Shown: positions 11,178 through 12,894 of the stretch, one piece after another
How the letters are laid out: each line of letters opens with the position of its first letter
How positions within the stretch are numbered: the stretch's first letter is position 1
Source of the DNA: Candidatus Hermodarchaeota archaeon
GTDB taxonomy: Archaea > Asgardarchaeota > Lokiarchaeia > Sigyniarchaeales > SOKP01
Direction of reading: 5' to 3'
Length of the DNA: 25,537 bases
Assembly (NCBI GenBank): GCA_048885525.1
Contig: JBHLLP010000050.1
Location: 1-25,537, forward strand
Translations under genes and position numbers: made by a program
Notes under the pieces: model-generated
Told to the model about the DNA's origin: nothing
The model's database searches: none
Seen by the model: only the letters and a program-made list of their open reading frames with translations

Positions 11178-11397
11178 ATCATTTCTTTATTCAAAAAAAT
11201 AACAAAACAACTCTATAAATTAATTACCAAAAATTTCAGGTTTAACTTAAGATATTTTTTTAAGGAGTTATCAGTGGTTTTAACAGATATTGCTAATTTA
11301 GACATTTTACGAACATACTAAAAATCAAAATTTAATAATAATTACCCCATTATTTTTACAAAATGTAAATAAAACTTTTTTTAAAGGAGTAATTAAT

Positions 11398-12144
11398 ATG
11401 ACTCTTACCGATACAAAATCATCATTAAAAAAAATACTTTCCATTATTGAAGAGCTTAATGGATTAAATTCAAATTCAATACCTAAATTACAGACGCAAC
11501 CCAATAATCTACTCGAACAAATTGGAAAACTTGAAGAAGCTAAAACTAATGATTTAAAAATTATTGAATCTAATGATGATGAAATCAATTCTTTAAAAAA
11601 TAAAATTTCTCAGAATCAACGGGATATTACCTCATTAGAAGAAAGTAATGTTGAGCAGAATAATCAGCGGGAAATTCTTCTTAGCAAAATTCAAGATGCA
11701 CAAAATGAATTAAATGAAACCCAAGCAAAAATTATAGCGCGAAGGGAGGAATTAGCAACTCGTAGTAATCGTTTAGATCAGCTAGAGAATAGAATTGTTG
11801 AGTTAAAAGACATTCAAGAGAAATTCGATAATAAAATGAAAGAATTTGAAACTCAACTTCAAGAAGCATATAATAAAAAAGAAAAGTTTAGTAATTCATA
11901 CGCAATGCGAACAGCTGCAATGAAGTCTTTGATTAAAGCTGGGTATATACAATCTGCCCAATTAAAACTTATACAAGCATTACAGCCAAATACTACTCTT
12001 GAACTAAAAGCTATAGTTCAAGCTATGGGTTTAAGGGAAGATGTGGCTAAAGATATACTCACAAAAATGGTTCAAAAAAATTGCCCAATTGAATATGATG
12101 AGGGAAGAGGTACAGTAACATTAAAAGAGGAGGTGGATTTCTAA
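11398..12144 (+). CDS. Long coiled-coil protein with C-terminal winged-helix domain (A)
   Basis: About 150 aa of heptad-like E/K/Q/N/L sequence, then QLKLIQALQPNTTLELKAIVQAMGLREDVAKDILTKMVQKNCPIEYDEGRGTVTL (HTH plus beta-wing). AAGGAG RBS. No Walker A motif. Confidence 0.75.
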   Translation: MTLTDTKSSLKKILSIIEELNGLNSNSIPKLQTQPNNLLEQIGKLEEAKTNDLKIIESNDDEINSLKNKISQNQRDITSLEESNVEQNNQREILLSKIQDAQNELNETQAKIIARREELATRSNRLDQLENRIVELKDIQEKFDNKMKEFETQLQEAYNKKEKFSNSYAMRTAAMKSLIKAGYIQSAQLKLIQALQPNTTLELKAIVQAMGLREDVAKDILTKMVQKNCPIEYDEGRGTVTLKEEVDF

Positions 12145-12872
12145 TGAGTTCACAAGATATTTTAGCATTAATCGAACAATTTGAAACCGCTTATGATACT
12201 TACTGGCAAGTTCTCCAAAAACATAATGAGGAAGTGCTTTCTCGATTAAGAGAAGCATGGCGTTATATGCAAACTGAACAAAAGGAAGAAGAAAGCATAA
12301 AAGAAAAATTATCAACTCAAAATTCAGAATTAACTGAATTAAGAACAAAGTCAGAAGAATTAGATAAAACTATAGAAGGATTAAAAACAAAAAAGGATGA
12401 ATTAGCTTCGAAGATTTCTGAGCTAACAAATAATTTGGAAACCAATGTCAACGATTTAAAAAAACCTGCATTTGAACTTGCTCAACTTGAAGACAAACTT
12501 AATGCTGTAAATGAAAAAATCACTGCTAAAGAAGAAGAGAAAACATCATTAGATCAAAAAACAGTTGAAGATGAAAATCGAGAAGTAGAGTTAAAAAATA
12601 CCTTTCAGAAAAAGATGGATGAGTTAGAATCTAAAATTAATCAAATGAGACAAAAAAATTTCTTTACATCATTCTTGATTGAAAATTCTGACGAAGAGAT
12701 TCATGAAGTTGATATTATTGCGACTATTATGGATAAGGGAGAAGCAAAATTAGACGATCTAAAGAAACTTCTCGATGTTCCACCAATAATGGCAGTTAGA
12801 ACCATCAAACAACTAGCAGTTAAGGGAATTCTTAACCTTGATGAGAATAGTGGAAAAGTATCTTTACCTTAA
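12144..12872 (+). CDS. Long coiled-coil protein with C-terminal winged-helix domain (B)
   Basis: Heptad-like body, then EVDIIATIMDKGEAKLDDLKKLLDVPPIMAVRTIKQLAVKGILNLDENSGKVSLP. TAATG stop/start overlap with gene A; GAGGAGGTGG RBS inside gene A. Confidence 0.75.
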   Translation: MSSQDILALIEQFETAYDTYWQVLQKHNEEVLSRLREAWRYMQTEQKEEESIKEKLSTQNSELTELRTKSEELDKTIEGLKTKKDELASKISELTNNLETNVNDLKKPAFELAQLEDKLNAVNEKITAKEEEKTSLDQKTVEDENREVELKNTFQKKMDELESKINQMRQKNFFTSFLIENSDEEIHEVDIIATIMDKGEAKLDDLKKLLDVPPIMAVRTIKQLAVKGILNLDENSGKVSLP

Positions 12873-12879
12873 ACTGTGA

Positions 12880-12894
12880 TTTTTTTTTATTTTT
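12880..12894 (+). terminator. Oligo-T terminator candidate
   Basis: T9-A-T5 beginning 8 nt after the stop at 12872. Confidence 0.45.

Follow-up and report, generated by a model that had tools for sequence, protein, structure and literature searches.

Genes A and B, two overlapping genes on a contig of a Candidatus Hermodarchaeota archaeon, constitute a real, unnamed and well-conserved module of Asgard archaea. The window analysed here is the whole 25.5-kb contig, which belongs to a 3.58-Mb, 99%-complete genome. Each gene encodes a long coiled-coil rod followed by a C-terminal winged helix (wH; Table 1), an established architecture; that the two proteins heterodimerize is probable, and their function is one that we infer. 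In the reading we favour, which we regard as probable though far from secure, A and B are a co-made, parallel heterodimeric rod that acts as a fixed-length adaptor or spacer with a twin wH head and probably serves a DNA or chromosome transaction.

Among known prokaryotes, none is more closely related to eukaryotes than the Asgard archaea, and missing links in cell biology are being sought among those conserved Asgard proteins whose function is unknown. The two-gene module is intact across Loki-, Heimdall-, Hermod- and Baldr-type lineages and probably Odin-type lineages, in which its products are currently annotated as 'hypothetical' or, wrongly, as 'chromosome segregation ATPase'. New here are a third branch of the family, termed S, a topoisomerase VI (TopoVI)-like gene cluster that contains S in one Asgard family, fusions of an S-type module to MutS domain V proteins, the unbroken register of the rods and a contrast in charge between the wH of S and the heads of A and B.

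The window contains two open reading frames of nearly equal length joined by a TAATG overlap, confirming the starting observation of an earlier sequence-only reading of this DNA (the original prediction). The hydropathy of both products has a pronounced 3.5-residue period, with z = 10.1 for residues 37-165 of A and z = 11.6 for residues 20-172 of B, values as high as which were reached in 0 of 2000 shuffles for either protein. One heptad register spans residues ~15-155 in A and 8-140 in B (~140 residues each), and residues 44-181 of A contain neither Gly nor Pro; because of this unbroken register and the stretch free of Gly and Pro, the rod is taken to be continuous and not a hairpin. The resulting length of ~20 heptads, ~20-21 nm at 0.15 nm per residue, bears out the rod of ~20-25 nm that had been proposed, at ~20 nm. 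No transmembrane segment was detected in A or B. Searches with the complete proteins against Pfam and NCBIfam returned only coiled-coil noise (tropomyosin, SMC, Rad50 and myosin), and full-length profiles were swamped by myosin and SMC coiled coils when compared with the PDB, in which only C-terminal sub-alignments were informative. PF24161, a precomputed domain of many homologs, was discarded as a further coiled-coil model, that of CCDC39.

The C-terminal 80-90 residues of A and B, modelled by AlphaFold2 with family alignments, adopt the order H1-b1-H2-H3-b2-b3, which is the wH topology, with predicted local distance difference test (pLDDT) scores of 80 for A and 79 for B. The best Foldseek matches of the two heads were MarR, SarZ, IclR, PCI, Z-beta and TrmBL2 domains (E values of 3e-3 to 6e-2). 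Using VIA-align, the B head superposed on BlcR (Z 9.5, root-mean-square deviation (rmsd) 2.0, 61 residues) and the A head on the BirA wH (Z 9.1, rmsd 3.2, 66 residues), with hundreds of winged helices at Z > 5. When Pfam matches with E values up to 1 were tallied for the C-terminal domains of 26 A and 25 B members, the families found most often were MarR, MarR_2, TrmB and HTH_27; MarR was matched by 14/25 B members, and the best E value was 5.6e-8, for MarR_2. The window's own B protein, P0002, scored 15.6 bits against MarR, for which the Pfam cut-off is 24.6 bits, and its A protein, P0001, had no MarR match. PDB profile searches with the C-terminal sub-alignments likewise indicate a generic MarR/TrmB-like wH. 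As modelled, both C termini are generic winged helices of this type, upholding the claims that A and B end in winged helices and share one architecture. E188 and P214 of the B wH are invariant. Across the family, the median isoelectric point (pI) is 6.6 for the approximately neutral A wH and 4.8 for the acidic C-terminal domain of B; whole proteins have a pI of ~5.

By profile comparison, A and B are ancient paralogs: their family profiles align end to end, including the wH, with an hhalign probability of 99.7 and an E value of 4.4e-26, whereas pairwise BLAST recovers only coiled-coil similarity (E 1e-5). The original prediction had contained neither this full-length homology nor the third paralog. 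More than 100 homologs each of A and of B, at 67-90% identity, occur in Loki-type metagenome-assembled genomes (MAGs) with consecutive locus tags, and a phylum-wide genome search found full-length but weak relatives in distant families. Of such distant loci, 20 were examined, from Loki and other lineages and, according to their source names, from Gerd/Heimdall, Heimdall (including a closed 4.94-Mb genome), Hermod and Baldr MAGs. At 20/20, a B-type gene of ~245-255 aa comes directly after an A-type gene of ~250 aa in the same orientation, with an intergenic gap of -11 to +27 nt. The co-conservation of A and B across Asgard archaea, for which synteny had been set beforehand as the test, was thereby borne out. 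P0001 and P0002 conform to the same pattern, matching the family profiles from end to end, junction helix and wH included, with A ahead of B. Strong full-length matches to the B profile (E < 1e-19) were found in 15/30 Asgard families sampled, one of them with genomes of 1.3-1.4 Mb. In the ESM Atlas, all clusters retrieved were from Asgard archaea, apart from a single Bathyarchaeota lead at 0.77.

In a maximum-likelihood tree of 75 A, B and S sequences, each of the three forms one group (Shimodaira-Hasegawa-like approximate likelihood ratio test (SH-aLRT) values of 91, 88 and 100, respectively). The A and B groups contain the same Asgard families with similar internal groupings. Because the A, B and S groups each span the same families, both duplications predate the split of the sampled Asgard classes. 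As a separate matter of taxonomy, homologs that are 77-90% identical to the proteins of the window carry the labels Thor-, Odin-, Heimdall-, Hod-, Hermod- or Promethearchaeota within one NCBI MAG batch, and these phylum-level labels cannot all hold.

Several lines of evidence suggest that A and B pair with each other. First, the junction between rod and wH lies at an identical residue number in the two proteins, with L178 of A aligning with L178 of B and the wH elements numbered alike. Across lineages at only 17-25% identity, the junction stays at position 174-184 in A and the anchor E188 of B at 187-199, such that rod lengths are nearly invariant in both proteins. Second, the order A then B is strictly kept, with overlapping or nearly overlapping stop and start codons in every lineage examined. 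An obligate 1:1 partnership would be expected to leave this adjacency, the matched geometry and the similar tree groupings of the two proteins. Third, prediction of the A+B complex gave an ipSAE of 0.52 (0.52, 0.54 and 0.52 in separate runs), as opposed to 0.00 for the best of three controls, a value in a range where, short of a high prior, most predictions are wrong. Contacts agreed to at least 98% between runs, with a partner pLDDT of at least 84. In the calibration of this tool, only 7/80 solved complexes passed at values of up to 0.60, as did both mismatched pairs that passed at all, and the result is graded as weak support. Finally, a different genus of the Loki family f1 carries an extra A'/B' pair with rods extended by 33 and 40 residues (L052:4986-6700; 283 and 288 aa).

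We infer a heterodimer as the best reading because of the co-conservation, the matched geometry and the weakly supportive complex prediction, and A and B therefore likely zip into one heterodimeric rod. Some results nevertheless count against this pairing, as do others, discussed below, against the link to DNA. Coiled coils are easily laid side by side in structure prediction. A test of charges at the g-e' positions did not separate the possible pairings, with mean per-pair values of 0.07 for AB, -0.04 for AA and 0.04 for BB and a noisy choice of axial shift. The joint lengthening of the two rods in L052 is a single evolutionary event. In another extra A'/B' pair from the same Loki family, again in a different genus (L051:4986-7202), the B' rod is ~60 residues shorter and is followed by a 290-aa acidic, low-complexity tail. 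An in-frame fusion of A to B that would speak for pairing, P0470 (491 aa, with the end of the A wing lost), is a single sequence on one 2,087-bp JGI metagenome contig; it could be natural, or it could stem from an indel or misassembly where the stop and start codons overlap. The heterodimer of the original prediction has the weak backing of the complex prediction, and the charge test does not favour AB over AA or BB.

These same results bear on the alternative that A and B each form their own homodimer or higher-order assembly, such as a tetramer, filament or lattice, and act in the same pathway, with the genes kept together for that reason. The charge test does not disfavour BB, the complex prediction is graded as weak support for AB, and the ancestral state was probably a homo-oligomer, given that nearly all genomes carry the third paralog, S, as a single gene. 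Strict adjacency with overlapping or near-overlapping codons, identical junction positions, near-invariant rod lengths in both proteins and similar tree groupings all speak against separate assemblies, and we consider this alternative unlikely, while taking it seriously.

In the favoured, heterodimeric reading, A and B would be made together from one two-gene unit and would pair in parallel and in register into a single rod of ~20 heptads (~20 nm). The two C-terminal winged helices would then sit side by side at one end of the rod, and two short conserved N-terminal helices at the other. Such a rod may serve as a fixed-length adaptor or spacer, its twin wH head binding one partner and its N-terminal end another; the module would be a structural connector because its rod length is fixed and its two heads are presumed to be paired. 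The neutral to acidic charge of the A and B heads makes a specific DNA operator a less likely partner of the head than a protein or a nucleic-acid structure, and binding to protein is the likelier for A-B. If what is seen for the sister branch S is extended to A-B, the process served would most likely be a transaction involving DNA or chromosomes.

In design, Hop2-Mnd1 comes closest, a resemblance and not a membership. This eukaryotic recombination cofactor consists of paralogous chains that form a parallel rod with juxtaposed winged helices (PMC4402518; PDB 4y66). Like Hop2-Mnd1, A and B are two paralogs of ~200-250 aa that would, if paired in parallel, form a rod with two winged helices at one end. 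Weak matches to the Mnd1 and Hop2 winged helices were obtained by profile (4y66_A, E 0.055) and by VIA-align (2mh2, Z 7.3, rmsd 1.8, 57 residues). Several features differ: the wH of Hop2-Mnd1 is N-terminal, whereas that of A and B is C-terminal, after the coiled coil; the Hop2-Mnd1 rod is built of three kinked leucine zippers, whereas the heptad register of A and B is unbroken; and the Hop2-Mnd1 heads bind DNA, whereas those of A and B are neutral to acidic. The Mnd1 and Hop2 (TBPIP) families were absent from the best 25 Pfam matches of P0001 and P0002 (E values up to 10) and from the tallies of the 26 A and 25 B C-terminal domains described above.

Spc24-Spc25 is a heterodimeric, parallel coiled coil of paralogs with paired C-terminal globular heads that acts as a fixed-length connector. 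The heads of Spc24-Spc25 and Ndc80-Nuf2 are RWD or CH domains, in contrast to the winged helices of A and B, and the only sequence similarity to kinetochore rods was coiled-coil noise (2ve7, E 0.24). The analogy to Hop2-Mnd1 and Spc24-Spc25 is architectural only, as the original prediction had framed it; no Hop2/Mnd1 signature was found in A or B, and the Hop2-Mnd1 wH lies at the other end of the chain.

The B profile also detected, in several families, unpaired single genes of ~225-260 aa, and the S branch was defined from an alignment of these (A5). S occurs in 239/301 sampled Asgard genomes and in 82/90 high-quality ones, almost always in one copy. S has the same coiled coil and C-terminal wH with a conserved junction helix and is homologous to both A and B. 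It differs in being a single gene whose rod varies, giving proteins of 159-337 aa in all, and whose wH is basic (median pI 9.0), whereas A and B are paired genes, with near-invariant rods and neutral or acidic heads. As far as sequence comparison can tell, A, B and S are three branches of one Asgard-specific, unnamed family. The copy of S in the genome that contains the window encodes 231 aa, again a coiled coil and a basic wH (G000:C1:138086-138739, - strand; locus L116:7971-8666). Two observations on S stand apart. An S-type sequence, P0334 (177 aa, partial; L110:4136-4668; E 2.4e-34), comes from a 4.7-kb contig in a MAG that bears the label Korarchaeota; the contig is mis-binned, or else the family extends beyond Asgard archaea. 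In a genome from Freyrarchaeia, a profilin gene adjoins S on the opposite strand (L055:1011-1424), probably by coincidence.

Two sets of observations associate S with enzymes of DNA metabolism. First, in a family of 16 genera (f9), S is present in 53/61 genomes, including 23/23 high-quality ones, and no A-B pair was seen in that family. There it forms a co-directional cluster, with gaps of 11-50 nt, of genes for Top6B, a divergent Top6A/Spo11-like protein, S, a 334-aa protein and a Roadblock/LC7 protein; this order is kept in 26-28/30 loci (L064-L093; for example, L064:456-3666 and G278:C18:42949-45354). The f9 genomes carry three Top6A and three Top6B genes, and the S-linked Top6A scores 83-91 bits, compared with 176-190 bits for the other two Top6A proteins. 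The cluster looks like an undescribed TopoVI-like module with accessory proteins. Its 334-aa protein had no Pfam or PDB profile match; a PD...E-x-K-like motif can be read in it, by eye only. The order S, 334-aa protein, Roadblock recurs in family f28 as partial synteny, and S had no informative gene context in families other than f9 and f28. Second, an exhaustive profile search found the S-type junction and wH module, at 79-93 bits, at the C terminus of 680-850-aa HhH-MutS_V proteins from Heimdall and Hod lineages. These MutS-like fusions (P0469 (850 aa; L111:6001-8553), P0373, P0392 and P0372) comprise an N-terminal HhH_5 domain, a MutS domain V ATPase and the C-terminal S-type module.

The f9 cluster and the MutS_V fusions are indirect hints that link the superfamily to work on DNA. 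The ties of the near-universal S to a Spo11/TopoVI-like pair through gene context, and to MutS-like proteins through fusion, offer a testable hypothesis about Asgard chromosome biology. For the A-B rod itself, the remaining unfavourable points concern this link. It rests on the paralog S and is lineage-restricted, the TopoVI-like context being confined to f9; in the source genome, S is monocistronic and lies amid metabolic genes; and no neighbour other than A and B themselves was common across families at the 20 distant loci, leaving the pair with no informative conserved neighbour. The charge contrast between the basic wH of S and the neutral or acidic heads of A and B also weakens the transfer of the DNA link from S to A-B. 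A bolder version of the reading would combine all three branches into an undescribed Asgard DNA-transaction system, in which S works with a Spo11/TopoVI-like cleavage module and with MutS-like proteins, and the A-B heterodimer is the functional counterpart, and possibly the evolutionary forerunner, of eukaryotic cofactors with two heads and a coiled-coil/wH design, Hop2-Mnd1 among them, whose substrates are intermediates of recombination or segregation. We put this forward as speculation and would be surprised if it held in full.

A direct role on DNA could also take a simpler form, in which A and B are MarR/TrmB-type DNA-binding regulators or nucleoid-associated proteins whose winged helices sit on DNA and whose coiled coil serves for dimerization or for bridging distant DNA. 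By profile and by fold, the A and B winged helices are nearest to those of MarR, TrmB and TrmBL2; their Pfam matches are mostly to MarR, MarR_2, TrmB and HTH_27, most of their structural neighbours, among them TrmBL2, a protein of archaeal chromatin, are winged helices that bind DNA, and the paralog S combines a basic wH with DNA-enzyme contexts. Proteins of the MarR, TrmB and TrmBL2 types, however, are basic, with the wH at or near the N terminus and short dimerization helices, and none has a 140-residue coiled coil before its wH, a length far beyond what dimerization needs. A and B have the wH fold of MarR proteins, yet the wH is not flanked by N- and C-terminal dimerization helices and P0001 and P0002 remain below the curated MarR cut-off. 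Neither the pI of the A wH nor that of the B C-terminal domain or of the whole proteins suits this role, and no target operon or divergent promoter arrangement is conserved beside the pair. We judge such a regulator to be quite unlikely.

Acidic or neutral winged helices suit protein binding, and this would be expected if A and B formed a cytoplasmic tether or scaffold of Asgard membrane, cytoskeleton or small-GTPase systems, comparable to golgins, SNAREs or kinetochore rods, with winged helices that bind only proteins, as in ESCRT-II, cullins and CdvB. A gene for an Arf-family small GTPase lies directly 3' of B in Gerd/Heimdall loci of family f29 (L034:3492-4046, L042:3501-4040 and L037:3247-3786), the last gene of the f9 cluster that contains S encodes Roadblock/LC7, one homolog has the automatic UniRef label 'V-SNARE coiled-coil homology' and the CdvB wH is a weak profile match (2xvc, E 0.27). 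Small GTPases and Roadblock proteins are, however, so numerous in Asgard genomes that adjacency to them is weak evidence. Neither is conserved beside the pair across families, the Arf-family gene not being conserved at this position outside f29, and the 217-aa protein encoded upstream in the window had no Roadblock match in Pfam. With no transmembrane segment, no SNARE or Snf7 match and no tie to ESCRT loci, a tether of this kind appears very unlikely, and the parallel heterodimeric connector remains the reading we prefer.

Labels drawn from known systems were rejected for other reasons. The IMG label 'chromosome segregation ATPase' (SMC/Rad50) is an error: matches to the SMC, Rad50 and ASRP models cover the coiled coil only and reach 19-30 bits, where the cut-offs are 300-1087 (for SMC and Rad50, 20-30 bits and 567-1087), and neither A nor B contains a Walker A motif in its sequence; the original prediction was right that these proteins are not ATPases and that 'SMC' is a misnomer. 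A CdvB-type ESCRT-III identity was dismissed because no Snf7 match was found, the unbroken register argues against a hairpin and the CdvB wH matched only at the E value given above. A known defence system is not supported, because the only PADLOC matches of A, B and S were coiled-coil ones to JetC and LmuB, and the f9 cluster proteins had none. We found no paper naming the A/B/S family, which is absent from a survey of ESCRT systems (PMC10936438) and from one of TopoVI (PMC9665070).

Table 1. Features of the A-B gene pair in the window. The ribosome-binding-like motifs and T-runs were read from the sequence.
Feature	Positions	Strand	Description
Gene A (P0001)	11398-12144	+	248 aa; coiled-coil rod then C-terminal wH; A-branch
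A rod	11440-11892	+	Residues ~15-165; single unbroken heptad register
A wH	11956-12123	+	Residues 187-242: H1 187-194, b1 200-202, H2 203-210, H3 214-226, wing 231-242
Gene B (P0002)	12144-12872	+	242 aa; coiled-coil rod then C-terminal wH; B-branch
B rod	12165-12692	+	Residues ~8-183; one heptad register 8-140, register shift 141-183
B wH	12702-12863	+	Residues 187-240: H1 187-198, b1 200-202, H2 203-209, H3 214-226, wing 231-240
TAATG	12142-12146	+	TAA stop of A (12142-12144) and ATG of B (12144-12146), one base common
T-run upstream of gene A GGAG	11376-11382	+	
GGAG ribosome-binding-like motif	11386-11389	+	8 nt 5' of gene A ATG
GAGGAGGTGG ribosome-binding-like motif for gene B	12127-12136	+	Within gene A 3' end
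T-runs (T9, T5)	12880-12894	+	3' of gene B stop; candidate archaeal terminator

The ribosome-binding-like motifs and oligo-T tracts on which the original prediction had partly relied for a two-gene operon are present (Table 1), but the genome is so AT-rich that such signals alone carry little weight. The genes around A and B in the window are unrelated to the pair. Upstream lie a queD/queC-type pair and genes for a Zn-ribbon protein, an APH/Kdo-type kinase-like protein and a small membrane protein; the kinase and Zn-ribbon genes were considered as partners of the pair and rejected, as their adjacency to A-B is not kept outside Lokiarchaeia. Downstream are genes for a short-chain dehydrogenase and a tungstate/molybdate-type ABC transporter.

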